Shown: positions 3-17,766 of the stretch, piece by piece
Layout: each line of letters starts with the position of its first letter
Numbering within the stretch: position 1 is the first letter of the stretch
DNA from: a virus
Lineage: Duplodnaviria > Caudoviricetes
DNA length: 26,075 nt
IMG/VR virus record: IMGVR_UViG_3300020042_006393
Coordinates: 1 to 26,075 of that record
Reading direction: 5' to 3' (one strand)
Translations under genes and position numbers: made by a program
Notes under the pieces: model-generated
Told to the model about the DNA's origin: nothing
Databases searched by the model: none
Seen by the model: only the letters and a program-made list of their open reading frames with translations

Positions 3-287
3 ATGTTTGAGGCATTGCGTGAGGCAGTAAGGACAGGTTGTATTCGTGACCTGCCAATGATTATCTCGCAAGAATTAAGAGCATTCTTTATTAACGACAA
101 AGGGAATATAGATTATCCACAACACCATACAACACACGGTGATAGTGTCATAGCTCTAGCTCTTGCGCTCCAATGTATTAAGCAAGTAAGTCTTCCAACA
201 AAGAGCCAGCTGCCTGACTGGGTGGCGCAGGTCAAACTATCTAAAGCGCAAAAGAAGCTAAGCTATCAGAGTACTAGGAGATACTAG
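3..287 (+). CDS. terL: Terminase large subunit, C-terminal fragment (gene truncated by window start)
   Basis: 'ELRAF...HHTTHGDSVIALALA' resembles the C-terminal RNase H-like nuclease motif (E(L)xxF...HDDxVxALALA) of TerL; lies directly upstream of the portal. Confidence 0.75.
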   Translation: MFEALREAVRTGCIRDLPMIISQELRAFFINDKGNIDYPQHHTTHGDSVIALALALQCIKQVSLPTKSQLPDWVAQVKLSKAQKKLSYQSTRRY

Positions 288-382
288 AGAGGAGGGCTAA
301 GGCGCCCTCCTCTACCTCATATCCCCCTCTATACCTGTCTTGCTAACTGCATTATTTGAGGCACCCCCTTATTTTCAGCGAG
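282..382 (+). repeat. Dispersed hairpin/box element, copy A
   Basis: Stem AGAGGAGGGC(288-297)/GCCCTCCTCT(304-313), loop TAAGGC; ATATCCCCCTCTA at 319-331; ACCCCCTTATTTTCAGCGAG at 363-382; similar to copies at 8617-8720 and 17652-17766. Confidence 0.85.
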
Positions 383-387
383 CAGCG

Positions 388-402
388 TTAACATCACCAA
401 CA
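388..402 (+). promoter_or_regulatory. Putative phage late-promoter motif TTAACA-N7-YA upstream of portal
   Basis: TTAACA TCACCAA CA, followed by TTATCGAGG RBS; same motif upstream of other structural genes. Confidence 0.5.
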
Positions 403-421
403 TTATCGAGGAATATATTCA

Positions 422-1978
422 ATGGCAAGATCAGAAGCAGAAACTATCAAGTTAATTCGTCAAGTGCTAGGTGAGCATAAGGACCTATGGACGAATAGAC
501 TTGGAGATATGAAGAGATTACGTAGAGCCTATATGACCAGATTCTTTGAAGATTTAATTCCAGATGAGTCATCCCTACGTGTTGAGACTTCAGATGGATA
601 TACCTTTATTGAATCTTACATCGCATCCTTATTTGAAAAGTCTCCATCAATTGAAGCTGACTCTATGCAAGCTAGCCAAGCTGATGTTGAGATAGCAAAG
701 GCATGTGTCAATGGCTGGATGGCTGATAACAGGAAGGCTCTAGAGAATGGCTCTAGATTGGCTTTAATATACCCTATGGCCTTCTTCAAGATCTCACCAA
801 GGGAAAGTACCGACCCATTGAATCGCGTGGCTATAAGGGCACTGGAGCCTTGGAATGTTATTCTAGATAGAGATGCAGACCTATGGGAAGAGCAGAGATT
901 TGTAGCTCATCACTATTACCTACCACTTAATGATGCCACCAGTTTATATGGATCTAAGAAATGGAATCCAGTTTCTAAACCAGATTACTTTCAGAATGAA
1001 GATAGAGTAGGTAGTGGCAAGTTCTCTAGTCTGCCAAACGAATATAAGTATATCGAGGTTGTTGAGTTCTATGATCTCACCATGGATAAGTTATATATCT
1101 TCTCACCAAACTATAAAGTAGGTGGTGGATTACTAGAAGACATAAAGATTCCTTTGCGTAATTATGATGGCTCACCTCTAGTTCCAATTGCACCACTCTA
1201 TTACAGTCGTACTCCAGATAAACCAATGGATGGTTACTCAACTCTAGGTCGTGTATATGATCAGCTATTTGAGAAGAATATCATCAGAACATTCTGGGCC
1301 AATGCAATACGTAGAGATAGCCGTCAGTTCTTATACAAAGAAGGTGTCATTGATGAGGAAAGTTTAGCAAAGATTTCTGCGGGTCAAGATGGAGCAATGA
1401 TTCCAGTTGATGCAGACTCTCTTGATGGATTGATTAGATCAATACCTGTTGAGCCTTTATCAGCAAACTTTGACAGATACCTAGCCATGGTTGAATCCGA
1501 TATTCAGAGAGGTTCTATCATATCTGCCAACGTAAGAGGTGAAGCAACCAAAGCAACAGCAACAGAGGTAACAGCACTAGCCCAGTATACAGCCTCAGAG
1601 ATTGGACGTATGGCTAGAGAGCGTGATGAATCAATTGAAATGTTAGCTAATATATTTATTAGAATGTTGGTATATCAGCTAGAAGATAAGGAGCGCCCAG
1701 TTATTATGGTTGATAAGAAAGCTGTATTTGTTACAGCAGATAAGCTAGATTATAAACTAAAGTTCTTTGCACTTGACCAGGCATCAACACCTCTAAGTAA
1801 AGAGATAAAGAAGAGACAACTTGTTGAGCTACTTCCAATATTAGCTCAGCTTAATGTAGATCCAAAGGCAATCAAGGAAGAGATAATCAGGTCATTTAGT
1901 TTACCTGAGACTTTCTTGAAGGAGCCTGAGATAACACAACCTCCACAGGTAGCAGCAGGTGAGGAGATAGGACTATGA
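422..1978 (+). CDS. Portal protein (head-tail connector)
   Basis: 518 aa directly after TerL; portal-like segments 'LEPWNVILD', 'VVEFYD', 'RGEATKATATEV'; GAGG RBS. Confidence 0.85.
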   Translation: MARSEAETIKLIRQVLGEHKDLWTNRLGDMKRLRRAYMTRFFEDLIPDESSLRVETSDGYTFIESYIASLFEKSPSIEADSMQASQADVEIAKACVNGWMADNRKALENGSRLALIYPMAFFKISPRESTDPLNRVAIRALEPWNVILDRDADLWEEQRFVAHHYYLPLNDATSLYGSKKWNPVSKPDYFQNEDRVGSGKFSSLPNEYKYIEVVEFYDLTMDKLYIFSPNYKVGGGLLEDIKIPLRNYDGSPLVPIAPLYYSRTPDKPMDGYSTLGRVYDQLFEKNIIRTFWANAIRRDSRQFLYKEGVIDEESLAKISAGQDGAMIPVDADSLDGLIRSIPVEPLSANFDRYLAMVESDIQRGSIISANVRGEATKATATEVTALAQYTASEIGRMARERDESIEMLANIFIRMLVYQLEDKERPVIMVDKKAVFVTADKLDYKLKFFALDQASTPLSKEIKKRQLVELLPILAQLNVDPKAIKEEIIRSFSLPETFLKEPEITQPPQVAAGEEIGL

Positions 1979-2127
1979 TAAAGATTATAATTAAAGATGA
2001 GAAGAGCAAGGCTATGGAAGAGCTAGACCAGATGTATCCTGAAATGGATGAACCATCTGAGGAAGTTGCTAAGCCTGCAACAAGAGCTGATAAATACAAG
2101 TCTATGTGTGAAGAGGAGGAATACTAA
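1975..2127 (+). CDS. Small acidic hypothetical protein (50 aa, MIKIIIKDEKSKAMEELDQMY...EEEEY); not in ORF track
   Basis: ATGA overlap with portal stop, GAGGAG RBS, TAATG overlap with next gene. Confidence 0.7.
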   Translation: MIKIIIKDEKSKAMEELDQMYPEMDEPSEEVAKPATRADKYKSMCEEEEY

Positions 2128-2588
2128 TGCCAATCTATGAGCGTTGGTGTGCAAGATGTGGTGGTCACAAAGAGCTTATCCTAAAAATGGAGAACCGTGA
2201 CCAAGAAGTTATTTGCGATAGCTGCCATATTGTTATGACTAAAATATTATCTGTCCCAGCTTTTACTCCATCTAGTTGGGGTGCTGATTGGAGAGCTGGT
2301 CTGTCAGGCTCATCTATCCAGTCAACAGCATTAGGTAGACCAGTAGCTTCTCGTAAAGAAGAGGAAGCTATAATGCGTGACAGAGGCTTTGTACCTGAGT
2401 CTGATTTAGGCAGTCACTTTATAGATGACTTCAACGCAAAGCGTAGAGAAGCAGTTCTAGAACAAGATAAGGTAAACGCTACCTATCATCAGAACCTAAA
2501 AGCTTTTGGCGGAGATAAGATCAAAGCTATGACAGAAACATTTCCAGCGCACGAGTGTGTGTCTGGTGAGAAGAAAACAAGTTATTAA
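2127..2588 (+). CDS. FmdB-like zinc-ribbon protein
   Basis: N-terminal MPIYExxCxxCG...CxxC...KILSxP matches the FmdB zinc-ribbon pattern common downstream of phage portals. Confidence 0.75.
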   Translation: MPIYERWCARCGGHKELILKMENRDQEVICDSCHIVMTKILSVPAFTPSSWGADWRAGLSGSSIQSTALGRPVASRKEEEAIMRDRGFVPESDLGSHFIDDFNAKRREAVLEQDKVNATYHQNLKAFGGDKIKAMTETFPAHECVSGEKKTSY

Positions 2589-2600
2589 GTAGGAGATAAC

Positions 2601-3125
2601 ATGGCAATGCAAGATATAGCAGCTCTAAATATGTCACCAGTTGAAGATATGAAGGGCGAAGTTTCAAAGAAGATTGGCGAGGTAGAAAAGATGGAAGAAA
2701 GTGTTGGCATGGAAGCAAGTCCAAAGGGCATGTTTTCAAAGGGTGCATTAAACTCTTTAGTTAAAGCACACAATGCAGTCACTAGCATGTTTGGTATTCC
2801 AACTTATCCTATGTTCAGCAAAGACGAGACTGTATTCCCAGCAAAATTTACCAGAGAACTTTTAATGGTATCTAAAGCTGTTGAAGATGCGACAGCAAAA
2901 GAAATCTTAACTCCTGATATGGCTATCTCTTTAGACGGCGTTAGCAGAGACAGAGATCTTGCTGCCCTAACTGGCAAGCTTTCAATGTTAGCAAAGAGCA
3001 AAGACTTTAAGAAGTTCTTGCAAGAAGCACCAGATGAAGAGCCTATGATGGAGGAAGAAGCTCCAGTTAAAGAAGGTATGTCTGAGACCGAGATGGACCA
3101 GATGTTTATGGGCAGAATGTCATGA
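2601..3125 (+). CDS. Hypothetical head-module protein (Met/Glu-rich)
   Basis: 174 aa ORF, AGGAG RBS, coupled to next ORF. Confidence 0.7.
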   Translation: MAMQDIAALNMSPVEDMKGEVSKKIGEVEKMEESVGMEASPKGMFSKGALNSLVKAHNAVTSMFGIPTYPMFSKDETVFPAKFTRELLMVSKAVEDATAKEILTPDMAISLDGVSRDRDLAALTGKLSMLAKSKDFKKFLQEAPDEEPMMEEEAPVKEGMSETEMDQMFMGRMS

Positions 3126-3265
3126 GCCTCTATGAGAATATGAATAAAAGAAAGAAAGCTGGAACTTCTAGAAGCAAATCTAAGTCTACCATTGATCCAA
3201 AGACCTACGATAAGATGAAGAAAAAGAAAGGTGGCTTTGCTCCTAAAAAGCCAAAGGCAAAGTAA
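3122..3265 (+). CDS. Small Lys-rich protein (47 aa, MSLYENMNKRKKAGTSRSKSKSTIDPKTYDKMKKKKGGFAPKKPKAK); not in ORF track
   Basis: ATGA overlap upstream, TAATG overlap downstream; strongly basic. Confidence 0.75.
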   Translation: MSLYENMNKRKKAGTSRSKSKSTIDPKTYDKMKKKKGGFAPKKPKAK

Positions 3266-3507
3266 TGGCTGAGAAAGCTAGAAAGAAAGTAGTTAAAAAC
3301 CCAAAGACTGGCAGAAAGAAAGTTGTTAAGTATGGGCAGAAAGGAGCAACAGTGTCACCAGGAACTCCCAAAGGTGATAGCTACTGCGCAAGAAGCGAAG
3401 GCATAAAAAAGAGACTGCCTAAGTCAGAACAGAATGATCCTAACACTCCAAATAATCTCTCAAGAAAAAGATGGAAGTGTGCTGGTGACAAATCAAGAAG
3501 AGACTAA
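3265..3507 (+). CDS. Small basic phage protein (VKYGQKG...SYCARS...SRKRWKC type)
   Basis: 80 aa, Lys/Arg-rich; motif pattern typical of small phage head-region proteins. Confidence 0.75.
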   Translation: MAEKARKKVVKNPKTGRKKVVKYGQKGATVSPGTPKGDSYCARSEGIKKRLPKSEQNDPNTPNNLSRKRWKCAGDKSRRD

Positions 3508-3520
3508 ATAAGGAGAACAT

Positions 3521-4333
3521 ATGTTACAATCAACCGAGACTGTCGAATCAACAGACAACACCGAGGTAGTTAGTCCAGAAGTAGAAGCAGCACCTAGTGA
3601 TGCATTTGATATAGACGCACTAATCGCTGCTAATTTTGATAACGATGAGGTAATGAAAGATCCAACTGCTGAGCATAGGATAGGCAAACCTTATCATGAG
3701 GTGTTAAAGCATATCCCAGAAGACGGCAGAAAAGTAATTCAGAATCTAAGAGCAAGTTATACACGTAAGACACAAGAGCTTGCTACCATGAAAGCTGATC
3801 TTGAAAATCAAAAGACTGAGATGCTAAGACAGCAGAAGCTTATGACTGATAGCGAGTGGGCCAAGAATATAAAGAGCCTTGCAGATGATAGCACTGAGCA
3901 TGACATCTGGGATGAGGAAGGAAGGAAAGCTTCCATCAAGAAAGAAGCTGCAAAGATGATGTCAGATCTGATGAAGCCACTTCAGCAGGAGGTAGCACAA
4001 GAGCGTAGAGCATTAGAACTAGAAAGATTTAAATCAGAGCATCCAGATATGCAAGACTTGCGTGTTGATATAGCTGCCCTTTTGATAGAAAGATCTGATC
4101 TTAAACTAGAAGACGCTTACTATCTAGTCAAAGGCAAAAGATCAATTGAAACATCTAAGCAAGCAGCCCAAGCTAAAGTATCTGAAAGAGAAACAGCTAG
4201 ACAGGGTATTGCAAAGATAGCTGGTGGGAAGAATGTAGATTCTACTCAGCTTTCGGCTCCTCAGTTTAAGTCTGCTTGGGATGCGTATCAATATCACAAG
4301 TCTATGTCATCAACAGGCACCAACAGAAAGTAG
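3521..4333 (+). CDS. Putative capsid scaffolding protein
   Basis: Acidic disordered N-terminus, coiled coil with 'YTRKTQELA', helical C-terminus; upstream of MCP; AAGGAG RBS. Confidence 0.75.
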   Translation: MLQSTETVESTDNTEVVSPEVEAAPSDAFDIDALIAANFDNDEVMKDPTAEHRIGKPYHEVLKHIPEDGRKVIQNLRASYTRKTQELATMKADLENQKTEMLRQQKLMTDSEWAKNIKSLADDSTEHDIWDEEGRKASIKKEAAKMMSDLMKPLQQEVAQERRALELERFKSEHPDMQDLRVDIAALLIERSDLKLEDAYYLVKGKRSIETSKQAAQAKVSERETARQGIAKIAGGKNVDSTQLSAPQFKSAWDAYQYHKSMSSTGTNRK

Positions 4334-4361
4334 TTGACAGCTTATAAAAGAAGAGTATAAT
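4334..4361 (+). promoter_or_regulatory. Consensus sigma70 promoter driving the tRNA
   Basis: TTGACA (4334-4339), 16-nt spacer, TATAAT (4356-4361). Confidence 0.85.
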
Positions 4362-4439
4362 AGATATACTTAATAACCTTGCGCTCCATTTTCGTATTTT
4401 AATAATGTGCTCATTTTAAATAGCAAGGTTATTCTGTTT

Positions 4440-4514
4440 GGGCTGATAAGCTAATCGGGAAACTGGCGCCCTTGCACGGCGCACTTGAGAGTTCGATCCT
4501 CTCTCGGTCCACCA
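4440..4514 (+). tRNA. tRNA-Ala (anticodon UGC)
   Basis: Acceptor GGGCTGA/TCGGTCC with G3:U70 Ala identity pair; anticodon arm GCGCC-CTTGCAC-GGCGC; T arm GAGAG-TTCGATC-CTCTC; discriminator A; encoded CCA. Confidence 0.95.
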
Positions 4515-4593
4515 CTACTCGAAAGTGAAGGTTTTATTCTTCTTAAACAAAGGTTCCGACAGGTTAAACCTAATCAATATCGCAGAAAAAAGA

Positions 4594-4627
4594 AAAGGGC
4601 TCTTAGCAAAATATGCTAGAGCCCTTT
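4594..4627. terminator. Bidirectional intrinsic terminator between tRNA and convergent membrane-protein gene
   Basis: AAAGGGCTCT(T)AGCA-AAATA-TGCTAGAGCCCTTT, flanked by an A-tract on the left and T-rich sequence on the right. Confidence 0.75.
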
Positions 4628-4632
4628 GTTCG

Positions 4633-4947
4633 TTATTGTTCTTCTATATAGGTGTGAGTATCACAATTATAATATCTTTCATTGCGGTAGGAATAACATC
4701 GTTCTTGATAGAATTTGCTGTGATGAAGCTGTCCCATTTCCTTTTGTTCTACATATGTTAGAGGTTCTACATATCCTAGAGGTTTTACATCTGTAATATC
4801 TTCCCAGTTGTCATATGCCCAAGCTATGAAAAAGAGAATTGCAAGATAAGAAGGCAGTAGAAAAACTGTACCTAAAAGGATACACAAGACGTATATGATA
4901 TCTTTGATTACTTCGATTATGTCAGAAACTTTCCATGTAACAAACAT
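4633..4947 (-). CDS. Small membrane protein (104 aa from ATG at 4947)
   Basis: Hydrophobic segment IIYVLCILLGTVFLLPSYLAILFFIAWAY; ends next to the terminator; the longer start at 5154 overlaps the MCP leader and looks spurious. Confidence 0.55.
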   Translation of the reverse strand: MFVTWKVSDIIEVIKDIIYVLCILLGTVFLLPSYLAILFFIAWAYDNWEDITDVKPLGYVEPLTYVEQKEMGQLHHSKFYQERCYSYRNERYYNCDTHTYIEEQ

Positions 4948-5047
4948 TTGCAAATCCGTTTTTTGTGTGACGATCAAGAATTTTAAGAATTCCTTGGATC
5001 GCCAATATTTTAACCAGCTATTTTTGAGGCGCCATAGATTTTTCTGA

Positions 5048-5062
5048 TTAACAAAATCTCCA
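5048..5062 (+). promoter_or_regulatory. Putative late-promoter motif upstream of MCP leader
   Basis: TTAACA AAATCTC CA. Confidence 0.4.
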
Positions 5063-5219
5063 CATATGAAGGGCCTATCTCGCCCGCTATGCTGAACCTC
5101 CTGGTTACCGATAGCTAAGCAGAAACAACTCTTGGCTGAACCTCGAAAGAACACCTCACTAAGAGAGCAATCAAACTTTAGTTTATCATTTAACCAATTT
5201 ATATCAGGAGAATTTAATC

Positions 5220-6215
5220 ATGGCAATATCAAACGACTTGCTAAGCTCAACACTCTACTCAATCAGAGATGGAGAAGTTGATCAGCTATTTAGAAAGACA
5301 GCATTCCTAGACCTTTGTAAATCAAACGGCGGAATTGAATACGAAGACGGTGGTATCAAAATTCAAAGACCACTCACCGTCGTAGACCACTCAAGCATCA
5401 CTGCACTAGCAACTGGTTATGAGCCAGTATCACTAGCAGTTAGTGACGTTCTAAAGCCAGCTATATACGAATGGGCAGACTTCGTAAGTCCTATAGTGGT
5501 TACCAAACGCGAGGAAATGGAGAATAACGGTGAAAAGGCAATCGTAAAGATTGTCGAAGCCAGAATGAAGAACGTTATGGCAATGTTAAGACGTGAGCTA
5601 AACAAGCAGATCCTTGCTGGTAGCTCAGTATCTCTAGCTGCGCTAAATACCCTAAACGGTGAGGCAAAAACCACAGGCTTCCTAGAGGCTGGTGCTGCTG
5701 CTGCCGCAACTCAGACTAACATTGTTGGTGGTCTAACCAAGTCAACTCTAAACGTCCCAGGTTGGTATAACTCATTCAAGCAAGGTTCAACTGCAACAAT
5801 CGTTGCCGACCTAACCGAAATCTACCAGGACTGTAACCAGTTCTCTCCATTCGGAAACGTCAGCGCAATAATCATGAATCCAGCTACCTTCTCTGCTTAC
5901 AAGTCAGCTCTATTCACCAATGAGAGATTCATTGACTCCAAGGCTCTTGATGCAGGCAGACTTCAGTTAGCATTTGCTGGCGCAGTCTGTGAGCAGGATA
6001 ACGAGATGCCAGCTAACGCAGGTGCAGCAACCAGATTCTCAGCAATTCTTCTAAACTTCGAAGGTATCAAGATGGTAATGCATAGCGATGGCGACTTCGC
6101 AGTATCACCTTTCGAGCATATCTCTGGAACCACAGCAAGAAGCGCACAGCTATACTTTAAGGGCCAGCTTATTGCAGACCATCTACGTGGTTCTGGTATC
6201 ATGAGCGGTATCTAA
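5220..6215 (+). CDS. Major capsid protein (HK97 fold expected)
   Basis: 331 aa after scaffold; strong AGGAG RBS; biased codon usage; MCP-like segments 'GGIKIQRPL', 'IIMNPATFSAY', C-terminal 'GQLIADHLRGSG'. Confidence 0.85.
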   Translation: MAISNDLLSSTLYSIRDGEVDQLFRKTAFLDLCKSNGGIEYEDGGIKIQRPLTVVDHSSITALATGYEPVSLAVSDVLKPAIYEWADFVSPIVVTKREEMENNGEKAIVKIVEARMKNVMAMLRRELNKQILAGSSVSLAALNTLNGEAKTTGFLEAGAAAAATQTNIVGGLTKSTLNVPGWYNSFKQGSTATIVADLTEIYQDCNQFSPFGNVSAIIMNPATFSAYKSALFTNERFIDSKALDAGRLQLAFAGAVCEQDNEMPANAGAATRFSAILLNFEGIKMVMHSDGDFAVSPFEHISGTTARSAQLYFKGQLIADHLRGSGIMSGI

Positions 6216-6245
6216 TCTTAACACATTTTATAAGGAAATAATACT

Positions 6246-6743
6246 ATGGCTACTTCAACATTAATTCAGAGACTAGATCAATCAGCTCTAACAACTTCAA
6301 CTACAGTTCCAGGTGGATACACTGTTGTAACAACTCCAGATGTTTCAAACAGAACTCAGAAAGAAACCTTCCTTGCTGGCGCTGCCATAACAAAGGGTGA
6401 CTGGGTTGCTTTCGATACTTCAGCAACTGGCGCTGTAAAAGTCCTAACCGTAATTCAAGCTTCAACAGCTTTTGCTCTTGGCAATCCACTTGTTGTAGGT
6501 GTTGCACTTAACGCAGCAACCGCAGCAGGCGAGAGAGTCGAAGTTGTTGTATCAGGTTACTGTGACATTGCAAACGTAGCTGCCGCAGTTGCAGCAGCAG
6601 GTGTCGCTCTAGTAGTCGACGCTACCTTAGCAGGAAGAGCTGTTGCACTAGCAGCAGCAGATACTGCAAACGCATGCGGTGTATCACTAGCAGCAGCTTC
6701 AGCTGGTAACGTAGGCGAAGTTTGGGTATATAAGCAGTTCTAA
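6246..6743 (+). CDS. Capsid decoration/cement protein (DUF2190-like)
   Basis: Ala/Gly-rich; 'AGAAITKGDWV', 'VVGVALNAATAAGERVEVVVSG' pattern; follows MCP and precedes terminator. Confidence 0.7.
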   Translation: MATSTLIQRLDQSALTTSTTVPGGYTVVTTPDVSNRTQKETFLAGAAITKGDWVAFDTSATGAVKVLTVIQASTAFALGNPLVVGVALNAATAAGERVEVVVSGYCDIANVAAAVAAAGVALVVDATLAGRAVALAAADTANACGVSLAAASAGNVGEVWVYKQF

Positions 6744-6761
6744 TCTCTAACTGATAGAGAG

Positions 6762-6793
6762 AAGGCCCTGGAATTCCAGGGCCTTTTTGTTTT
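6762..6793. terminator. Intrinsic terminator after capsid operon, between convergent genes
   Basis: Perfect 24-bp palindrome AAGGCCCTGGAATTCCAGGGCCTT (6762-6785) followed by TTTGTTTT. Confidence 0.9.
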
Positions 6794-6794
6794 A

Positions 6795-7991
6795 TCAGTA
6801 TCTCTTCATTGCTAGCGGGATTCTTGCATCTATATCATATCTTGCTTTTAAGAACACCTCTAGAGAATCTTCCAAATACTTCTTGATATCATCAGTAAAA
6901 GATCTCCAGTCGGTTATTAAGAATCCATCAAAGCTTAAAGCTTGAATCTCTAGGCCAAATGCTCTACACTTACGCTCTAGAAGCTGGAGGCATTCGTCTT
7001 CGATTGCTTGAATTGTTAGGGCTAATCTTCTAGAACCATATTCAATGTGTGCAAAAGACTTTGACTCATCTTTAGACTTTAATTCTAATGCTAGAACAGA
7101 AAGATCCTTGTGTAAACCTTCTAGATTTTGTGTTATTTTTGGTGTATAGCCATCACCGTCTCTCCAAGCTGGTGATTCAAAGCTAGAGTTCTCTTTAATC
7201 CAGGTAGTAAAAGCGTTATTACCTTCTTGTTTATATTTGAATGGAGCTAGATAGCATGTCTGAAGAAGCAACTTCTTGGCAGGATCATTATCACAAGCAA
7301 AGTTCTCTTTTATCTCATCAATAAATAAAGGTCTATTTCCAGCAAGGAGGCTTAGCTTTGTAAGATCTAGTCCGTACTTTCTTGCAAGACCATCCATAAT
7401 AATTGGATGGCAGTTAGACATGTCTATCTCAGCTTGGTCGAATACAATCTCAGCTCTCAATACTTTTGGAAGACTTTGTAGGGAAGGACTTGTTGCAAAT
7501 CTTCTGCCATCCTTTCCAGCAGTTCTTTCATATGTCACCCAGTTGCATCCGTCTTCTTTGTTATAAGACATTGCATACATCTTGGCTGCCATATAGTGCT
7601 CAGGTTTTGCAAATAGGGATGGTCCTTTTGAAACTAGGTGCTCTAGCTTTGCAATGTTAACAACCTCTCTGAAGAAATCCTTTCCTTGTTCACCAGACTT
7701 TGGCTTCTGAGTTGGCTCGACAGTCCAGCAGGCCATCTCTCTTACAGCTTCCTTCTTAAATGTGTAGCCCATGGTGTATGCTTTCTTGACGTTGAAAGAA
7801 TAATTATCAGATACAACGTCCAAAATATTGGAAAGTTTACGCTTATAGTTATCGCCAAACTTTCTGTTTAACTCAGTGGCTGATACATAGAACGCATTGT
7901 TGTCATACATATGTGCTCTTTGGTTATTATCAACTTGGGCTTTCAATTCAAGCAGGGCTAGCTTCTCTTTGTTTGTGAATTCTGTGATCAT
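6795..7991 (-). CDS. Family-A/T7-RNAP-superfamily polymerase-like protein (TV-Pol-like), 398 aa from ATG at 7991
   Basis: GRRFATSPSLQSLPKVLR (cf. GRLSSxxPNLQNIP), motif A EIDMSNCHP, motif B AKKLLLQTCY, 'IQAIE', motif C LSFDGFLI; GGAG RBS 5 nt before ATG 7991. Confidence 0.7.
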   Translation of the reverse strand: MITEFTNKEKLALLELKAQVDNNQRAHMYDNNAFYVSATELNRKFGDNYKRKLSNILDVVSDNYSFNVKKAYTMGYTFKKEAVREMACWTVEPTQKPKSGEQGKDFFREVVNIAKLEHLVSKGPSLFAKPEHYMAAKMYAMSYNKEDGCNWVTYERTAGKDGRRFATSPSLQSLPKVLRAEIVFDQAEIDMSNCHPIIMDGLARKYGLDLTKLSLLAGNRPLFIDEIKENFACDNDPAKKLLLQTCYLAPFKYKQEGNNAFTTWIKENSSFESPAWRDGDGYTPKITQNLEGLHKDLSVLALELKSKDESKSFAHIEYGSRRLALTIQAIEDECLQLLERKCRAFGLEIQALSFDGFLITDWRSFTDDIKKYLEDSLEVFLKARYDIDARIPLAMKRY

Positions 7992-8043
7992 GTCATCTCC
8001 ATTTATTAGTTTGATATTAGTAGAAAATCGCTGGGAAAATATT

Positions 8044-8514
8044 TTATCTTGCTGGTGCAGAAGGATGGTAAATCTTTTTAGCATTAAGATAAGCTTGTTT
8101 TGCTTCCTCTTCGGTGTCATGATAGCCTAAAGAAATTGTCTTCTTATTGGCTGAAATTCGTGCTTGCCACTTTCCTTTCTTCTTATCAAAGAAACATCCC
8201 TTAGCTCTCTTTTGGTTTTGAAGATTTTCTGCTCTAGTGACCATTCGAAGATTAGAAAGTCTATTGTCGTATGTATCTCCATTGATATGGTCAACATGGA
8301 GATTGGGATCCCAATCTTTTAAAAATGTCATTGCTAGCAAACGGTGTAGACCACAAGTAGTCTGTTTACCATTATCATAAATGGAGCAGAAAAGATATCT
8401 GCGCATTGAACCTGCATGCACCAGCTTTAAAAGCTTACCAGTCTTATCATTCATAACTTCGCCGCTCTCACTGATGCTGTACTTGCCCTCGTAACCTGGT
8501 ATTGATGTGAACAT
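8044..8514 (-). CDS. NUMOD4-HNH homing endonuclease with C-terminal AP2-like DNA-binding domain
   Basis: IPGYEGKYSISESG (NUMOD4); LHRLLAMTF...VDHINGDTYDNRLSNLR (HNH); GKWQARI...LGYHDTEEEAKQAY (AP2); AAGGAG RBS. Confidence 0.9.
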   Translation of the reverse strand: MFTSIPGYEGKYSISESGEVMNDKTGKLLKLVHAGSMRRYLFCSIYDNGKQTTCGLHRLLAMTFLKDWDPNLHVDHINGDTYDNRLSNLRMVTRAENLQNQKRAKGCFFDKKKGKWQARISANKKTISLGYHDTEEEAKQAYLNAKKIYHPSAPAR

Positions 8515-8616
8515 ATTTTTTCTCCTTTTTCGTTGCAGCCATCGTGGCCACTCTATACTAGAAAATAGTCATAGATTTGCAACCGACCACAGCTTTTTTT
8601 TGAAATTATTTTTGCA

Positions 8617-10323: not shown

Positions 10324-12569
10324 TGCAGACTAACACAACAAAACAAATAAGAGCGGGTGGTGTTGATCAGCGTTATGAAGCCCCTGATAATAGCGCATCT
10401 GATATCGTAAACATGAGACAGGATTCTGAAGGATTCGGTTTCATAAACGATAGAGGCTTTGAGCCAATGATTCCTAAGAACCTGCATTCAAGCGTGCTTG
10501 GTTCAACTGCGGACTATGAAAGACTCTTTGTTTGGGAAAGACATAGAGGAGCTGAATGCTATGTAATAACCAAGCAGGGAGGCGAGTTATTCAGTGAGGT
10601 TGCTAACAATAGTGGTCTAGCTTCTATTGCCTGGAAGCCTCATCACACTGTTGCCTTTGGAAGATCATCAGCAAAAAGTGATGACCCAGGAGAGCAGTTC
10701 GTTCCTTTTGGAAGATTTTGTTTAATCTTAAATGGCCAAGATCCAATGTTAAAATACTGGGGTCGTGATAGAACAGAGAACTTTGGATTTACCTCACCAA
10801 CACCTTCTCCAGAAGTCTTAGCTACTGATAGTAAATACTTTGAAGGAGTATGTAATTTAGCTGCTACTCCTCCAACATCAACCTTTCCTTATCCTGAGAA
10901 TAACACAATTGGTGGTATAAACTTTGGTGTTGGCAGTGGCACAGGTCTTGGTTCAAAGACTCAGAATAGCGTAAACTATTATAGGTACAAAGTATCCTTT
11001 ATCACAGATACTGGATCTGAATCACCCTTATCTGAGCCAACTCAGGTTAACTGGACTAACGAATCAAACGATGATCTAACCTATTCAGTTTGGTTTCAGC
11101 ATGTACCAGTAGGTCCACCAGGAACTGTTGCTCGCAGAATTTATAGAACCAAATCACTAGATGATCTAAGAGGTGGTGGAAGTGCAGGAGAAACCTACTA
11201 TTTAGTTTCTCAAATAGACGAGAATGTTTCACGAAATTACATTGACATTCTTCCAGATGACTTGCTATCCGTACCAGCTCCAGATGATTTTGCATCAGTC
11301 GTTATTTCATCAAGAATGAAATATGGTGCATCATGGGATGGCAGGATGTGGCTAGCTGGTGGTAAAGGAACTGAAACAACAATCATATACTCAGATCAAG
11401 GTTTGCCAGAACAGTTTAATGCTTTTAACTATTTTGACGTTGGAAATAGAAAAGGCGGAGCTATAACAGCTTTAGTTCCTTACTATGATAACTTACTTAT
11501 CTTTAGAGAAGGAAGCATTGAAATTGTAAGACAAGCAGGATCTGGATATATTTGCACAACTTTAAATGCAAACATTGGAACAACTGCAACCAATGCGATA
11601 ACAAATATCCAAGGATCAGGAATTTTATTCTTATCTTACGATGGAGTTTACACTTTCCAAGGTGGAACTCTAGGTGGATCACAGGTTGAAGTGCGTCGTA
11701 TATCAGATGTGGTTCAGTCGGAAATAAATAGAATCTCAATAGGTTCTCTAGCAACTGCAAAGGCTAGCTATTCAACCAAGGAGAAAGAATGGTGGTGCAT
11801 TTATCCTGTTGATGGACAAACAAAAAATACTAGAGGGCTTGTCTATCATACCTTAACAAATTCTTGGTCATTTAGAAATGATGTTGTTGACAGTAATGGC
11901 ACAACAAATGTAGCTTTCAATATAAATGATATCTCAGTTCTTCCACAGGGATGGTTCATAACAGCTCCAAGAGTAACTCAGACTGGCCCAGTTAATGGTG
12001 TTTATACGCTTTTTCCTTCTGGTATACAGGTGTGGTCTGCAAAGAGATCAGCAGGTGGAGCGCTTACCTACACAGTATCTGGGCAAGGAATTAAAACTAT
12101 AACCTCTAGCTTTGCAAGAGCAACTGTACCTTCTATCTGGTCTGGAGCATGGCTTGATTTTGGTGATGATAGTATTAAGAAGCGCATCATATCTGTTGAA
12201 GTTGAAATACTTTCACAGGGTCATAATGAAATCGAACTAACTTCAGCAGTCGATTATAGAGATGAGGATACTTCTTCTGGATCTAAACCAACCGTTGTTG
12301 CTGAGCAATATGGAACTCTTTCAGAAGATGCAACATACGGTCCTGCTGTTGGAACATTTGATAAATCAGTGGCTATAGTTGGAACATCAAGGTGGGGTGA
12401 GAATAGAGTAACAAGATTAAGATGGGATGTAAATACATCTTTGGTCTCATGGTATAGATTCACATTGAAAAGCACAGCTATGTTCCAGGTAGTTGCTTAT
12501 CACGTTTCTTACGTTGGATCTGATAACAAGACCATCAATCTAAAGGCTGGAGAAAGGAAGACACCATGA
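10323..12569 (+). CDS. Tail nozzle / DNA stabilization protein (P22 gp10, T7 gp12-like)
   Basis: 748 aa; beta-propeller-like motifs 'GRMWLAG...IIYSD..PEQF', 'ITALVPYYDNLLIFRE'; follows adaptor with TAATG coupling. Confidence 0.75.
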   Translation: MQTNTTKQIRAGGVDQRYEAPDNSASDIVNMRQDSEGFGFINDRGFEPMIPKNLHSSVLGSTADYERLFVWERHRGAECYVITKQGGELFSEVANNSGLASIAWKPHHTVAFGRSSAKSDDPGEQFVPFGRFCLILNGQDPMLKYWGRDRTENFGFTSPTPSPEVLATDSKYFEGVCNLAATPPTSTFPYPENNTIGGINFGVGSGTGLGSKTQNSVNYYRYKVSFITDTGSESPLSEPTQVNWTNESNDDLTYSVWFQHVPVGPPGTVARRIYRTKSLDDLRGGGSAGETYYLVSQIDENVSRNYIDILPDDLLSVPAPDDFASVVISSRMKYGASWDGRMWLAGGKGTETTIIYSDQGLPEQFNAFNYFDVGNRKGGAITALVPYYDNLLIFREGSIEIVRQAGSGYICTTLNANIGTTATNAITNIQGSGILFLSYDGVYTFQGGTLGGSQVEVRRISDVVQSEINRISIGSLATAKASYSTKEKEWWCIYPVDGQTKNTRGLVYHTLTNSWSFRNDVVDSNGTTNVAFNINDISVLPQGWFITAPRVTQTGPVNGVYTLFPSGIQVWSAKRSAGGALTYTVSGQGIKTITSSFARATVPSIWSGAWLDFGDDSIKKRIISVEVEILSQGHNEIELTSAVDYRDEDTSSGSKPTVVAEQYGTLSEDATYGPAVGTFDKSVAIVGTSRWGENRVTRLRWDVNTSLVSWYRFTLKSTAMFQVVAYHVSYVGSDNKTINLKAGERKTP

Positions 12570-13324
12570 GTAAAACATATTCCGTAGGCGTTCACCAAAA
12601 TAGAGATTATGCAACAGCTAAAGCTTTTAATCAAGATGCATCTGGTTTTCTAGCAGAATTTAATGGAAAGCTAGATGCTCAGCAGTTGCCATATGAAACT
12701 ATAGATGATTCAAATATGGTTGCAAATTCTAGGATAGCTGTTGATAGCAGACCAGATGGATCAGCTCAAGATGGCGTTGGTGTTATAATGGCAACGCAAT
12801 CTTACTTTCAGGTAGAAAGCACTCTTAATACTTTTACCTGGGCAAGATATCCAGCAGCCGATGTATTAGGTCCTCCGCTTGCAACATTCTCATCACAGAA
12901 TAATAGCTGGGCATCTGGTATTTTGTCACTGTCAGCCAATATAACAAGAGGATCTTTCCTAAGAATTCCAACATCTGAGGGCTTCTTAAGAGGAGCAGCA
13001 CAGATAGATGTTGAATATTTCTTTGTTTCACAAGAAGCAGCAGGTTTTACAGGTAACTTTGGTGCTGGTTGGAGATGGCAGTTTTACGTATTCGTAAATG
13101 ATGTGATGGTATCAACAACTGGCGAACAACCAGCTGGAAGAAGAAGGACTGTAAATCTTCCATTCGCAGCTCCAATCGCTTCTCAAGATTCAGTAACAAT
13201 AGATGTTAGATGGTCAGCAACATTTGATGGTGCAGGAACATCTCCAGCTAATATAAAACTTATTGAAGATGCAAACTTAAGAGTTTATAACTGCCTGTTA
13301 TGGGCGCGTAACCAATATAGATAA
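12566..13324 (+). CDS. Putative tail/collar virion protein
   Basis: Beta-rich 252 aa, coupled to nozzle gene. Confidence 0.55.
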   Translation: MSKTYSVGVHQNRDYATAKAFNQDASGFLAEFNGKLDAQQLPYETIDDSNMVANSRIAVDSRPDGSAQDGVGVIMATQSYFQVESTLNTFTWARYPAADVLGPPLATFSSQNNSWASGILSLSANITRGSFLRIPTSEGFLRGAAQIDVEYFFVSQEAAGFTGNFGAGWRWQFYVFVNDVMVSTTGEQPAGRRRTVNLPFAAPIASQDSVTIDVRWSATFDGAGTSPANIKLIEDANLRVYNCLLWARNQYR

Positions 13325-13333
13325 GAGGGATTA

Positions 13334-13987
13334 ATGTCAAACGCAAGTTTTAATTATCAAGATGCAAGAGCAGTAATTACGGCAACAAATTTAAACCAGC
13401 CTTTTACTGCTTTGAAGGATGCTTCAGATGGTACTTCCGGAAAGATTGATCCTTCAAATACAAGATCTGAAGCATTCAATCGAAACCATTTTAAGCAGTC
13501 AGTAGGACCAAATGTCAGCGACTCTGACTTTGATAGTGATGAGACAGTCTATGGTTTTAATCCAGCTCAAACTGAAGTCTTTACAACCATTGCAACATTC
13601 TCTGTAAACTTAGCATTGCAGCCAAATGATTGTCTAAGACTTGGGTCAAATCCTTTGGTCACTACCACCTCCGTAAACACTCTTGCATCACCACTAATAA
13701 GATCTGAGTCAGCATTCTATCTATGCTGGTTCCTAACGATTGGAGGTGTTGATGTTCAGATAGGTTATCCTTTTGGTTATAACACAATTGTAGCAGGCGA
13801 TGGTAATACAGGATCTTCAGATAATAAAACCTTATTTTATGAAAGACTGCCAATGTCATACTGTTACTTGCCTTCTATTGCTACAACCGTAACTGCAATC
13901 AAAGTCAAGATATATTTTGATGATGCTACGCACTATCGAGTTGATCTAAAGAATCTTTACTTACACTATGTATGGGCTAAGTTCTAG
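13334..13987 (+). CDS. Putative tail/collar virion protein
   Basis: Beta-rich 217 aa; N-terminal 'ITATNLNQPF' tail-anchor-like motif; GAGG RBS. Confidence 0.55.
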   Translation: MSNASFNYQDARAVITATNLNQPFTALKDASDGTSGKIDPSNTRSEAFNRNHFKQSVGPNVSDSDFDSDETVYGFNPAQTEVFTTIATFSVNLALQPNDCLRLGSNPLVTTTSVNTLASPLIRSESAFYLCWFLTIGGVDVQIGYPFGYNTIVAGDGNTGSSDNKTLFYERLPMSYCYLPSIATTVTAIKVKIYFDDATHYRVDLKNLYLHYVWAKF

Positions 13988-13995
13988 GAGAAGAA

Positions 13996-14829
13996 ATGCC
14001 ATTTACACCACCAAATACCTTTACTACTTCTCAGGTTCTCCAGGGAACTCAGGTTGCTCAGAATGAAGAAGCAGCCCGTAAATATATCAACGTAGATATT
14101 GTTGAAGCAGACCTCCAAGATAGCGTATTTGGAGACTCCGATTTGCAAGAAGGAGAAGCATTCCAGGTTACTCTTGATAATATCTTTATGACTGGAGATC
14201 AGTATAGCAATTTTTTTGCACAAAAAGAAGTGCCACGCCAGTCTAGAATATATCATACAAGCACTGTTAAAAGACAGAAGCCAATGGAGACCATCAAATG
14301 GGTTGCAGTTCCTCAGCTTGGAAAGCAGATTTACTGTGAGACTATAGCCAATGTATTGATTGAAGTTGCATTCTTTGCATATGAAGATGAGAACAATGAT
14401 TGCAGAGGAGCTGTATTCCCATGGATAAATACACCAACAGCAGGAAATACAAGATCAGATGGCCAAGATTCTAGATATATCCTTGCGATAGATGGCTCAG
14501 ATACATATGCTCCAGATGAAACAATCAACTTTAGCTTCAATGAAGCAGGTGCTACAACGATTGTCTTTGGCCAATTCTCAGTTATGCAAGGACGCTCCAA
14601 CTTTCAAGCTGATGCAACAGGACAGCGTAAGTTAATTCGCATGCAATATCTTGCAAAGAACCTATCTCAGGGTTGGCATAACATAGCAGTCTTATGTGAT
14701 CCACGCAATGAGTGGGGCTATGTTGATTGCCATGTTTTCTCAGTTGAGATGTTTTATAAAATGGGATATGATACCGTTGAAACTTCAACCATTGCCACCA
14801 ATAGAAAGTTGCCTGAGACACAGTATTAA
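13996..14829 (+). CDS. Putative tail/collar virion protein
   Basis: 'MPFTPPNTFTTSQVL' N-terminus typical of phage tail proteins; AGGAG RBS. Confidence 0.55.
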   Translation: MPFTPPNTFTTSQVLQGTQVAQNEEAARKYINVDIVEADLQDSVFGDSDLQEGEAFQVTLDNIFMTGDQYSNFFAQKEVPRQSRIYHTSTVKRQKPMETIKWVAVPQLGKQIYCETIANVLIEVAFFAYEDENNDCRGAVFPWINTPTAGNTRSDGQDSRYILAIDGSDTYAPDETINFSFNEAGATTIVFGQFSVMQGRSNFQADATGQRKLIRMQYLAKNLSQGWHNIAVLCDPRNEWGYVDCHVFSVEMFYKMGYDTVETSTIATNRKLPETQY

Positions 14830-14840
14830 CAATCACAATA
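14826..14840 (+). promoter_or_regulatory. Putative late-promoter motif upstream of ejection genes
   Basis: TTAACA ATCACAA TA, then TTATCGAGGAA, nearly identical to the portal upstream region. Confidence 0.5.
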
Positions 14841-14858
14841 TTATCGAGGAAATATATA

Positions 14859-15509
14859 ATGGCCATATCTCGTTTGCAGACAAAATTAATAGGTGCCGCA
14901 GGACCAGCTGTTGGCCAAGCTGTTGGTTCTATGATAGCAACCAAGCCTTCAGAAGCTGACAAATATAATCAGGATAGAATAGCTGAACTTCAGAGAATGC
15001 AGGAGCTTGGTTCTCTTGGTTTGACTGAACAGGAAAAGAGAACTTTGCAAGATAAATATTCTTTTAAGCTTGGGCAGATTGGTCAAGAAGGTGCACAAAG
15101 AAGAAGTCAGCAGATGGCATCCTTTGATATGCGTGGTGGCCAAGCTTTACAGCAAGCAGCACTAACTGACAAAGCTTTGATAGAAGGAACTTTACAAGCT
15201 GAAGCTAATGTGCTTGAGGCAGACATGGCAAGAAGAGCACAGTTAGAAGCTGAACTTGCAAGACGCCAGGCTGTTGAAGATAAGAGAATTGAAGATAGAA
15301 GACTTGGAATTGGCAAAGCAGTAGCTGGTGGTATTGAAGCTTTATCAACAATCCCAAGCGAAGACATTGAAGAGCAGGGACAGATCAGTAAAGAGCTAAT
15401 CAATGCCGCAGCTTCCAAGCTTAACATGTCACCAAAGCAAGCAGAAGACTTGCTAAAACAAATATCTGGTGATCCTATATTAGCTAAATTACTAGGAGGC
15501 GCACTCTAA
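14859..15509 (+). CDS. Putative DNA ejection/pilot protein (internal virion protein)
   Basis: Gly/Ala-rich hydrophobic N-terminus, Gln/Arg-rich coiled coil; first of three internal-protein-like genes. Confidence 0.6.
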   Translation: MAISRLQTKLIGAAGPAVGQAVGSMIATKPSEADKYNQDRIAELQRMQELGSLGLTEQEKRTLQDKYSFKLGQIGQEGAQRRSQQMASFDMRGGQALQQAALTDKALIEGTLQAEANVLEADMARRAQLEAELARRQAVEDKRIEDRRLGIGKAVAGGIEALSTIPSEDIEEQGQISKELINAAASKLNMSPKQAEDLLKQISGDPILAKLLGGAL

Positions 15510-17614
15510 TGGCAAGAAAAAAAGCAAGCGAAGCTTATTCAAAAGGCCTAGTTTATTATGAATCATTTTTCCCAAATAGAAATGATATGTTACAAACAGC
15601 ATTGGATAATGTTTTATCACAGCAAGCTGAGAAAGAAAAAGCAGCTGAGTTAGCTCTTGATGTTTACAAGGATTATGCTAAAACTCTTGATAAGGATATT
15701 GATCGTCTTCAAAAACTTCAAGATATGCTAGCTGTAAGAACTGTTGATAAAACTTTTGAAGCAAAAAAATATAATGCTGGTCAAACCAACACATCCACCA
15801 GAACAGAGTATACCACTGCTAATGCAAACGCAAGATTTAATGCAAAGCAAGCAGCCTTAGCTGCTTACTTTGGAAGCAAAGCAGTTACAGCAGGTGGTGC
15901 AAAAGGTGGACCTATTGATGCACAAACTGCAAATCAAGCACGCCAGTCTTATACTTCAAATCCAACGGATGTTAGATCTGGTCTTAGCAATTATAAAGGA
16001 CAAGTTGCTAGCACAACTGAAATTCCAAAATCAACCGATGAAGTCCAGATGGGTATGGCTTACACGGTTTCTCAGTATGTTGTAGAGGAATCTCAGAAGC
16101 CAGAATATAAAATGTTTGGTCAAGATAGAACTGAAGCTGCAGCAGCTGCTGTTATTGGAAAGCTTGATAAAGCAGATCAAGACTTAGTCCTTAGTGGTAT
16201 GAAGAAACTTGAGACAGCAGCCAAAGGAGCAGGTGGTGGAGCAACTGTAGGTGGACCAGATGTAGGTACAGGTAGTATCAAAACCAGAGGTGTTGAGGCT
16301 CCTGATTACTCTGGAATAACAGAAGATATTGGAGCACAGATTAAACGTCTAGAAGAAGAGAAGGTTGCTAAAAAAGCAGCAACTGAAGCTCAGGTTGCAG
16401 CAGCAGCCGAGCCTATTGATATGATCACTGCTCAGCGTAAAGAATATTTTGAAAAATTCTTTCCAAATGAAACTCCTAACTTCGCTGTTAACGAAGCTGC
16501 TAAAGCTCTTCTATCCATGAAAAGTGAGGACATTGCAAAGATTGTAGCTGCTGTACAAGAAAAATCTAGACTAGATGATTTAGCTGGAAGAGTTCCAGAT
16601 GGATCAGGCTTTGGTTATGGTGGTGCATCAAGTGAGCCAATTCTTCCATCAGGTAAACAAGGTCCTAGAATGGCAGGCGACATAGTCGGCATAGAAGGAA
16701 CTGAAGAAGATATGACTGTTGGAGTTAGACAGGCTACTGATTACGATGCTATTGCAAGAACAGTATCACCAGAGATGAGATCACAGATAGGTAAAGCTTT
16801 AACTCAGGACCAGCTATTTGCAATAGAATCTTCAGATGCAGCAAAGGCTAGCTTAAAGTCAAAAGGTCTTTCAATTGCAGGAGGAAGACTTGTACCTACC
16901 GCTCTATTGCAGAAGAGACTAGAGGTTGGTGGACAGGTTGAAGTTCCTGAAGTACCACCTATACAATCTCTAGATATTCCAGCTGGAGAATCCTTTGAAG
17001 CTATGAGAACTAGAGAGCTTGATATCTTAATGAAGCAAGATGAGAAAGCCAAGAGCCTTGTTACAAGAGCACAAATGGAAAGAGATGCAGCTATGAAGGC
17101 ATCCACTCAGGCAAGATCTCCACAGGATATATTAACTACATCAACTGCTTTGGAAGAAAAAACAGGCTTGCTAAATGAAGCAATAGGCGTTGGAAAGGTA
17201 GCTGGTGAAAACTTGGCAAAAGCAACCAAGAAAGGCTTTGAAGCTTTCACAGAAGATGAAATGCTAAAGACAAGAGTAAATCCTCTAGGCTCAGATAAGA
17301 AGTCAGATCAACGATCACTAGCTAAGTTAGCACCTATGACTGATGCTCAAAGAGATAGCGAAAGAAAAGTAAGAGCTGCCGAAAGAGCCAAGGCTATGTA
17401 TGATGCAGGCGAGATTGATAAAGCCAGTTCAACAGCTATTGGTAAGGCCGTAAAAGATCTTTATTCTGCCAACAAAGCAAAGGGCGACCAGGATCTCAAG
17501 AGCACAATCTCTTATATCGCAACAGAGTTCCCAAGACCTGCCGATCAAGAGGAAGCTGTATCACTCTTATTCGCTCTAAACTATCGAGACGAGAAGGATA
17601 AGAAGCTCAAGTAA
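15509..17614 (+). CDS. Putative internal virion/ejection protein
   Basis: 701 aa, helical, Ala/Lys-rich with Gly-rich linkers; synteny. Confidence 0.55.
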   Translation: MARKKASEAYSKGLVYYESFFPNRNDMLQTALDNVLSQQAEKEKAAELALDVYKDYAKTLDKDIDRLQKLQDMLAVRTVDKTFEAKKYNAGQTNTSTRTEYTTANANARFNAKQAALAAYFGSKAVTAGGAKGGPIDAQTANQARQSYTSNPTDVRSGLSNYKGQVASTTEIPKSTDEVQMGMAYTVSQYVVEESQKPEYKMFGQDRTEAAAAAVIGKLDKADQDLVLSGMKKLETAAKGAGGGATVGGPDVGTGSIKTRGVEAPDYSGITEDIGAQIKRLEEEKVAKKAATEAQVAAAAEPIDMITAQRKEYFEKFFPNETPNFAVNEAAKALLSMKSEDIAKIVAAVQEKSRLDDLAGRVPDGSGFGYGGASSEPILPSGKQGPRMAGDIVGIEGTEEDMTVGVRQATDYDAIARTVSPEMRSQIGKALTQDQLFAIESSDAAKASLKSKGLSIAGGRLVPTALLQKRLEVGGQVEVPEVPPIQSLDIPAGESFEAMRTRELDILMKQDEKAKSLVTRAQMERDAAMKASTQARSPQDILTTSTALEEKTGLLNEAIGVGKVAGENLAKATKKGFEAFTEDEMLKTRVNPLGSDKKSDQRSLAKLAPMTDAQRDSERKVRAAERAKAMYDAGEIDKASSTAIGKAVKDLYSANKAKGDQDLKSTISYIATEFPRPADQEEAVSLLFALNYRDEKDKKLK

Positions 17615-17651
17615 CCGCCAGCCGAGTGCAAAAACATTCAGCGCCGTTATC

Positions 17652-17766
17652 AATAGGAACATAGGAGGAGGAGAGGGAGGGCTAGGGCCCTCCCTCTACT
17701 ATATATCCCCCTCTATATCCTACTACCTATGCCTATTTTGGCGAACCACCTTTCATTCTCTGCGAG
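17652..17766 (+). repeat. Dispersed hairpin/box element, copy C
   Basis: Stem AGAGGGAGGGC(17672-17682)/GCCCTCCCTCT(17687-17697), loop TAGG; ATATCCCCCTCTA 17703-17715; AACCACCTTTCATTCTCTGCGAG 17744-17766; outer stem AATAGG..CATAGG/CCTATG-CCTATT. Confidence 0.85.

Follow-up and report, generated by a model that had tools for sequence, protein, structure and literature searches.

What kind of signal is a hairpin element of about 100 nt that recurs three times, in both orientations, between the virion genes of a tailed phage? The question is raised by the contig IMGVR_UViG_3300020042_006393, which was analysed over its whole length of 26,075 nt (hereafter the window) and represents part of the genome of an uncultured tailed phage, namely its virion module. 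A first-pass annotation had described copies A, B and C as sharing a perfect stem, an invariant 13-mer and a second box (box 2), and had offered hairpin promoters, priming or origin signals, a structured cis-acting RNA and a mobile element as explanations. Here we describe the element in the window and in related phages, and tentatively favour its reading as an ssiA-like single-stranded DNA priming signal for a phage polymerase of the TV-Pol type, spread and shuffled by recombination.

Layout and pairing of the element

The coordinates, letters and shared layout given previously for the three copies all hold. Relative to the late genes, copies A and C are forward and copy B is inverted. The hairpin of copy A, located directly 3' of the stop codon of the large terminase gene, consists of a perfect 10-bp stem with a GGC/GCC apex and a 6-nt loop (288-313, plus strand), and is followed by a tract (314-362, plus strand) containing the 13-mer (319-331) and a pyrimidine- and AT-rich spacer, and by box 2 (363-382, plus strand). 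In case of copy B, all parts of which are on the minus strand, a perfect 9-bp stem with a 5-nt loop (8686-8708) precedes a tract (8640-8685) with the 13-mer (8669-8681) and box 2 (8617-8639), then an A-tract and a sigma70-like promoter pointing to a minus-strand gene cassette. Copy C comprises, on the plus strand, a perfect 11-bp stem with a 4-nt loop (17672-17697), a tract (17698-17744) with the 13-mer (17703-17715), and box 2 (17745-17766). The gap between stem and 13-mer amounts to 5, 4 and 5 nt in A, B and C, and the end of box 2 follows the end of the 13-mer after 51, 52 and 51 nt, respectively.

Mismatch-free 13-mers and box-2 12-mers occur window-wide only at the three copies, and a profile built on eight copies found no fourth copy within the window. 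Perfect stems of at least 8 bp with a GGC/GCC apex are present three times in the window, compared to none of 200 dinucleotide shuffles with even one such hairpin. The 5' purine flank can pair with the 13-mer to an outer stem; this folds in A, B, and C as well as in the copy of the distant phage L140 (handles with L denote related loci), and is inconsistent in the other copies.

Queries with the proteins of the portal, the adaptor, and the second ejection gene gave 19, 14 and 3 related loci, respectively. Five further distinct copies were identified at the same sites, namely L002_A (also present in L003 and L106), L004_A, L138_B, L138_C, and L137_C. Since these were found by synteny and not by their hairpin, they constitute an independent test of the pairing claim. 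Including L140, nine full copies are available, eight of them from the clade of the window phage, in addition to a partial copy D from reads. Counted outward from the apex over positions 1-9, all 81 stem pairs of the nine full copies are Watson-Crick pairs, with no wobble on either strand, whereas in a control with arms swapped between copies 218 of 432 cells (50%) pair. L002_A and L004_A differ from copy A at five and two positions of the left arm, respectively, with the same right-arm positions altered, and L138_C differs from copy C at four left-arm positions with matching changes in the right arm, although some of these arm differences may reflect single indels and not separate substitutions. 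L138_B and L137_C have an unchanged stem and an altered loop. RNAalifold returned only -2 kcal/mol on a MAFFT alignment due to stem arms that were out of register, and later alignments were similarly misregistered.

The loops comprise 4-6 nt with at least six different sequences. In all eight clade copies, 65-68 nt separate the right arm of the stem from the box-2 core, and in all nine copies a C/T tract lies 2-24 nt 3' of the stem. The 13-mer, previously called invariant, is so inside the window, but it is present in only half of the clade copies (A, B, and C of the window and L004_A); the other four (L002_A, L137_C, L138_B, and L138_C) carry a TA-rich tract instead. It is one of two exchangeable tract alleles. 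Similarly, box 2 stands at all three window copies but is degenerate in L004_A and L138_C. The conserved core of the element is given by the GGC/GCC apex, the pyrimidine tract, and the distance of 65-68 nt to box 2.

Neither an Rfam family nor a terminator family explaining the element, a finding named as refuting by the first-pass annotation, was found. In the window and nine related loci no Rfam covariance model matched it, and only tRNA passed the threshold; a HOTTIP_2 match overlapping copy C (E 4.5, 11.6 of 80 bits) is a chance match. An intrinsic terminator was rejected as well, as none of the 11 terminator-like sites in positions 1-18200 is a copy and none of the three hairpins scores on either strand. 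Most stems pair a purine arm with a pyrimidine arm and are followed by a pyrimidine tract, which recalls intrastrand-triplex repeats of the BoxC/TMECO kind, in which a third block mirrors the homopurine/homopyrimidine arm (PMC4666352; here and below, statements refer to the available parts of the cited sources). However, mirror matches between tail and arm cover just 6-7 of 8-10 positions, in most copies no better than a direct copy, and the L002 stem is not homopurine. With the mirror test failed, the triplex explanation is largely refuted and appears highly improbable.

Distribution and turnover of the copies

Runs containing the window sequence are freshwater or lake metagenomes in 20 of the 20 listed; no RNA dataset was listed, which has no bearing on expression. 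Read contigs of six different runs among them were inspected. Together with the related loci, they bear on the earlier statement that the layout reflects selection on structure and spacing rather than recent duplication. Its first part agrees with the matched arm changes and the constant spacing in the clade; its second part is too strong, since near-identical strains swap patches of 60-80 nt among copies. Compared to L002, the window is 98-100% identical on the flanks of copy A, but only 35 of 62 positions agree in hairpin and tract, which are exchanged together in L002 and L003. Likewise, the tract of copy C is exchanged in L137 (25 of 41 positions agree, compared to 594 of 600 in the upstream gene). 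At site B, the lake sample of run X1 holds two alleles, of which the second combines the same stem with a TA-rich tract. In run X20, 78 nt of copy B are exchanged for 77 others. A contig of run X15 covers positions 1-1804 of the window and carries copy D about 2.1 kb before the window start; this copy is inverted like B and contains the 13-mer and a different stem with 7 visible pairs. The equivalent site is spanned in L002 and holds no copy.

Site A is occupied in 3 of 22 informative loci (L001 was dropped as truncated), all with a portal identity of at least 93%, and is empty in 19 of 19 loci with a portal identity of at most 71%. For site B, 1 of 13 loci is occupied (L022 and L033 were dropped), and for site C both loci found by tblastn, while L029 and L030 lack the element according to their lists of open reading frames (ORFs). 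Absence at syntenic positions, which had been put forward as a refutation, is therefore seen beyond the clade (site A) and not within it. Exact-pattern scans of viral contigs gave no match in one case and three in the other, one of which is real and already known. The same kind of scan of metagenome contigs returned 100 loci, of which one is real (L106, the same as L002), and the other 99 have no proper stem there or no phage genes. No match was found in an annotated phage set. As far as covered by these searches, the element ranges over one clade and one distant phage.

Such a distribution, with patchy sites, both orientations, and a copy D present in one strain's contig but not at the equivalent place of L002, would suit a small non-autonomous mobile or selfish repeat without benefit to the phage, which would be copied from one intergenic gap to another, with the TV-Pol/HNH cassette described below or a host transposase as possible agents. 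The remnant-like sequence before copy C and the occurrence of other dispersed hairpin elements in family phages point in the same direction. MITEs are characterised by terminal inverted repeats and target-site duplications, REP/RAYT systems by a GTAG foot and a RAYT gene. With REP/REPIN and MITE repeats the element shares the intergenic palindrome, both orientations, and patchy presence; it differs from them by its location in a phage and by the lack of visible target duplications or terminal repeats. At the three window copies neither a target-site duplication nor a terminal inverted repeat was found, the longest shared words being 4-5 nt. On the reverse strand, GTAG is found directly next to the stem in four of the nine copies, and neither a RAYT nor a transposase match is present in the window. 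Furthermore, strict pairing and length suggest a function. In four of four runs no contig joins across the cassette, although contigs show presence and not absence. We consider the selfish repeat unlikely.

The lead-in to copy C (17615-17671, plus strand) starts with 20 nt that resemble the 3' end of copy B and continues with a purine-rich flank. Within it, positions 17615-17640 repeat the copy B end over about 13 letters. This sequence is absent in L138 and is possibly a remnant of an earlier copy of the element.

Between box 2 and the ATG of copies A and C, a motif is located which is separate from the element. It occurs family-wide before late genes as TT(G/A/T)AC(A/G), 12-14 nt, and TAGAGG-like letters. 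Together with the ribosome-binding site (RBS) it occupies 388-421 (plus strand) before the portal gene, 14826-14858, and 17770-17802; it stands alone at 14826-14851 and is lacking at copy B. In the window, the motif is located at 388-413, 5046-5070, 8746-8772, 14826-14851, and 17770-17795. Due to the presence of a gene for a lone sigma-70 region-4 protein in the family, we infer a late promoter. This gene was observed before the small terminase gene in L002 (541-852) and L020 (993-1310).

As copies A and C lie between a stop codon and promoter plus RBS, and copies B and D at the borders of variable modules, a regulatory cassette similar to the PeSLs of T4-like phages has to be considered, in which the stem-loop would attenuate, terminate or protect RNA before promoter and RBS and provide homology for module shuffling. 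PeSLs combine promoter, stem-loop, and Shine-Dalgarno sequence and mediate shuffling (PMC2839356, PMC4122927). The likeness concerns multiple intergenic stem-loops near promoter and RBS with signs of recombination between copies, in agreement with the patches exchanged by strains, and on the opposite strand box 2 loosely resembles the late-promoter motif. Excised circles or gene loss between copies were not seen in the contigs of four runs. However, promoter matches overlapping box 2 are weak (9 of 12) and at chance level. In comparison to PeSLs as described in the available parts of these two sources, the element has no internal sigma-70 consensus, a separable promoter, both orientations, core virion genes at its flanks (copies A and C), and no terminator signature. 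None of the hairpins scores as a terminator, G-U pairs are absent from the 81 stem pairs, and no Rfam family matches; moreover, at 14826 the promoter/RBS motif is found without the element, and at copy B the element without the motif. A PeSL-like cassette is thus rather improbable. Both this explanation and the selfish repeat remain serious rivals, and both are compatible with a priming signal.

A TV-Pol-type polymerase beside the element

The cassette addressed by copy B splits the virion module between the cement and adaptor genes. It consists of a gene for a NUMOD4-HNH-AP2 endonuclease (8044-8514, minus strand) and a gene for a protein of about 397 aa (6795-7988, minus strand), with a terminator-like hairpin (6759-6788, no strand assigned) at the end facing the cement gene. 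Although neither Pfam nor PHROG matches were obtained for the 397-aa protein, the best fold matches of its model (predicted local distance difference test 80) are a protein from an uncultured phage and the replication polymerases of virophages (BFVD, E 1e-13 to 1e-9), followed by PolA structures (PDB, E about 1e-6). A profile search returned 20 clusters at E 1e-30 or better, which are mostly stand-alone proteins of about 400 aa, and many longer proteins match the core only. R162, D189, K238, Y246, and D354 are invariant in 21 of 21 aligned proteins. Among these, R162, D189, and D354 represent the hairpin Arg and the two palm Asp of the minimal PolA core, without exonuclease, which defines TV-Pols. 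With an N-terminal domain of about 140 aa in front of the catalytic core, the modelled protein fits a stand-alone TV-Pol-type family-A polymerase and is the predicted partner enzyme of the element.

TV-Pols possess a minimal PolA core and an N-terminal extra domain, occur in the context of mobile elements, and are related to T7-like RNA polymerases (PMC2579912). For CcPol, a member of the group, de novo priming of DNA together with a partner protein and a preference for purines opposite a C in the template have been described (PMC7581432); by the time of that study on CcPol-MP (2020), no other member had been characterised according to the available part of the source. With TV-Pol and CcPol-MP of SCCmec, the window protein shares the core with catalytic Arg and two Asp, the N-terminal extra domain, and the mobile-element context, but no D5 helicase, recombinase or single-strand-binding (SSB) partner is seen and the Arg of the RxxxK motif is not conserved (PMC2579912, PMC7581432, PMC10061031). 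D5 helicase, resolvase, integrase, and transposase genes were not seen among the 21 scanned ORFs of the window, a partial genome, or in the ORF lists of L139 and L140. Two TV-Pol proteins had no match in the annotated phage set, one of them none in plasmids either, and two scans of GTDB gave no close relative but four distant domains, all without the element.

A search with the TV-Pol alignment yielded 80 loci, of which L020, L139, and L140, all family phages, contain the full-length form; in case of L020 the locus does not cover the upstream DNA. In L140, whose portal and TV-Pol are 53% and 28% identical to those of the window, a perfect 10-bp stem with the GGC/GCC apex is situated 250-300 nt upstream of the TV-Pol gene, flanked on both sides by a word similar to the 13-mer. 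The leader of this gene contains, at 431-528, the box-2 core twice in the form of a perfect 17-bp inverted repeat, a possible operator or RNA stem. In shuffles of this region the stem occurred in 17 of 20000 cases, one box-2 core in 77 of 5000, and two in none of 5000. Due to the fact that site A is empty in L140, the single copy in its 7.4 kb is the one beside the TV-Pol gene. In family loci without TV-Pol, the apex pattern was otherwise met only in a terminator-like hairpin of L030, and 478 kb of unrelated DNA contained six such hairpins, none with the tail.

In a distant phage, too, the counterpart of this polymerase gene is preceded by a matching element. The element is thus likely a start signal for the predicted primase, and the earlier priming or origin option gains support from this gene link at copy B and in L140. 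Pure Watson-Crick stems, both orientations, a C/T tract on the 3' side of the hairpin whichever strand is read, and the location next to the gene of a predicted primase lead us to the priming signal. In RSF1010, priming by RepB' begins 5 nt 3' to the ssiA hairpin, and synthesis then enters the hairpin (PMC8567376), and mini-hairpins at the G4 and ssiA origins have been reviewed (PMC13037366). The element resembles ssiA/ssiB in being a structured hairpin DNA signal with copies on opposite strands, a dedicated primase gene nearby, and a pyrimidine few bases 3' of the hairpin as a possible start. It differs in its length of about 100 nt, compared to 40 nt of ssi, in its three or four dispersed copies, compared to one pair in oriV, in its variable stems and exchangeable tracts, in the absence of a visible iteron, initiator or helicase gene, and in the candidate enzyme, a family-A TV-Pol in place of the archaeo-eukaryotic primase RepB' (PMC8567376). 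Since the neighbour has a PolA fold and the sites are kilobases apart, the element may work like ssi without being a member of this group.

By analogy, all enzymatic steps of such a priming cycle can be formulated conditionally. The hairpin would extrude, or form once its strand is exposed; TV-Pol or a partner would bind apex and box 2; and TV-Pol would then lay a purine-first primer opposite the C-rich tract and proceed toward the hairpin. Additional copies in both orientations would provide more priming sites on both strands, and recombination between copies would remix the hairpins and tracts without altering length or pairing.

Several observations weigh against a priming signal, the probability of which we put somewhat below even. 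Association with TV-Pol beyond the clade is seen in one of two informative distant loci: for L139 (TV-Pol 30% identical) the element was not seen in the 430 bases available upstream, which contain only another hairpin and a box-2-like word of 8 nt (199 of 5000 shuffles), and all 77 loci whose TV-Pol domains are more distant (727 kb) lack it. The L140 copy itself has a profile score of only E 1.3, its box-2 core lies 77 nt from the stem and not 65-68 nt, its better 13-mer match is on the opposite side of the hairpin, and the joint occurrence of stem and tail in 1 of 20000 shuffles refers to a tail pattern defined after L140 was seen. As far as this partial genome reaches, neither a helicase nor an SSB gene was seen in the window. 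CcPol depends on a partner protein and has no strict start sequence (PMC7581432). In the RxxxK fingers motif, K238 is invariant and Arg is common in the subfamily, while the window protein has Asn. Finally, all copies are located just before a promoter-like motif, so that a transcriptional role would fit equally.

Such a role had been proposed earlier in the form of hairpin promoters like those of phage N4. They would serve a single-subunit RNA polymerase, either one packaged in the virion or the TV-Pol itself. Both are DNA hairpins with a conserved apex and a variable but paired outer stem, as in N4 early promoters (PMC4496689); the relation of TV-Pols to T7-like RNA polymerases (PMC2579912) and the giant virion gene downstream of copy C (17803-24291, encoding 2162 aa) would suit this explanation as well. 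However, the stem of the element is longer, a distal box is present, and its variable loops of 4-6 nt stand against the fixed 3-nt loop of N4 (PMC4496689). For the 2162-aa protein, Pfam, PHROG, and PDB gave no match, its nearest named Atlas cluster is LPD38 (score 0.90, a lead only), and the RNA-polymerase motifs looked for are missing. In a sequence-level search, which could miss a very diverged enzyme, neither a polymerase match nor such a motif was found in the 701- and 2162-aa proteins. The genes downstream of the element each possess a promoter-like motif of their own, linked to the sigma-70 region-4 protein. The proposal of N4-like promoters therefore does not hold up well and is regarded as quite improbable.

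Returning to the priming signal, it is tempting to speculate further that a TV-Pol primase without helicase reads a modular signal of hairpin, tract, and box, scattered on both strands and spread by the same cycle of enzyme and recombination, and that each replication module of the family has its own dispersed hairpin element. This extended version is doubtful.

Genome context and significance

The virion module runs from the end of the large terminase gene via portal, scaffold, capsid, cement, adaptor, and tail genes to three ejection-type genes; several of these gene names follow from position and weak matches. For the 2162-aa protein no sequence match was found, and its L138 orthologue comprises 1963 aa. 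Behind the giant gene, an 11-bp stem is located (window about 24318-24352, L138 about 15190-15225), in which two bases are swapped between the two phages in a compensatory manner. A tRNA gene (4440-4511) is situated beside a variable minus-strand gene slot, and the close strains L001 and L004 have a different tRNA sequence there. One contig of run X1 links position 5002 to 8052, with 23 letters on the short side, hinting that in another strain the HNH gene may occupy the slot before the capsid gene.

A leader at 5046-5219 separates the major capsid gene from the late-promoter motif before it, and the core of this leader (GCTGAACC...GGTTACCG) is conserved in nine loci (the window, L001, L008, L010, L011, L014, L016, L021, and L025). 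No Rfam match was obtained for this leader in the window and the related loci. It is probably structured and a candidate for a new cis-regulatory RNA.

Replication modules are exchanged in the family and occupy three different genome positions. L015 has a primase-polymerase-like gene and a VapE helicase gene (1257-3592), and in its 14 kb no copy of the element was found; a stand-alone TV-Pol is present in four others, namely L020 (3-992), L140 (619-1794), L139 (431-1600), and the window (6795-7988). A second type of dispersed intergenic element, composed of GCGAAGC/GCGTAGC-type mini-hairpins, a TA-rich tract, and A/T tracts, was observed in both orientations in L008 (95-250 and 4670-4810), L010 (430-600 and 3455-3629), L014 (720-800), and L016 (1020-1180), and after the portal gene in L009 and L012. 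Its carriers are family phages in which no TV-Pol was seen, and the second copy of L008 is followed by a box-2-like word.

A description of the element was not found in the literature searched, which covered few subscription papers and no supplements, nor was a structured recognition site for TV-Pols; the available parts of the TV-Pol studies (PMC2579912, PMC7581432, PMC10061031) describe no hairpin recognition site for any member. If the priming signal holds, it would be of a known kind, set apart by its enzyme family, its dispersed layout, and its exchangeable modules. As TV-Pols occur widely among virophages, phages, and mobile elements, the element would then provide a short, defined template with natural variants for studying the de novo start of DNA synthesis by a family-A polymerase, and possibly a site-specific primase for biotechnology. 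Even if it does not hold, the element offers a clear example of modular exchange in a phage repeat, between sites within one population and with pairing and length retained.

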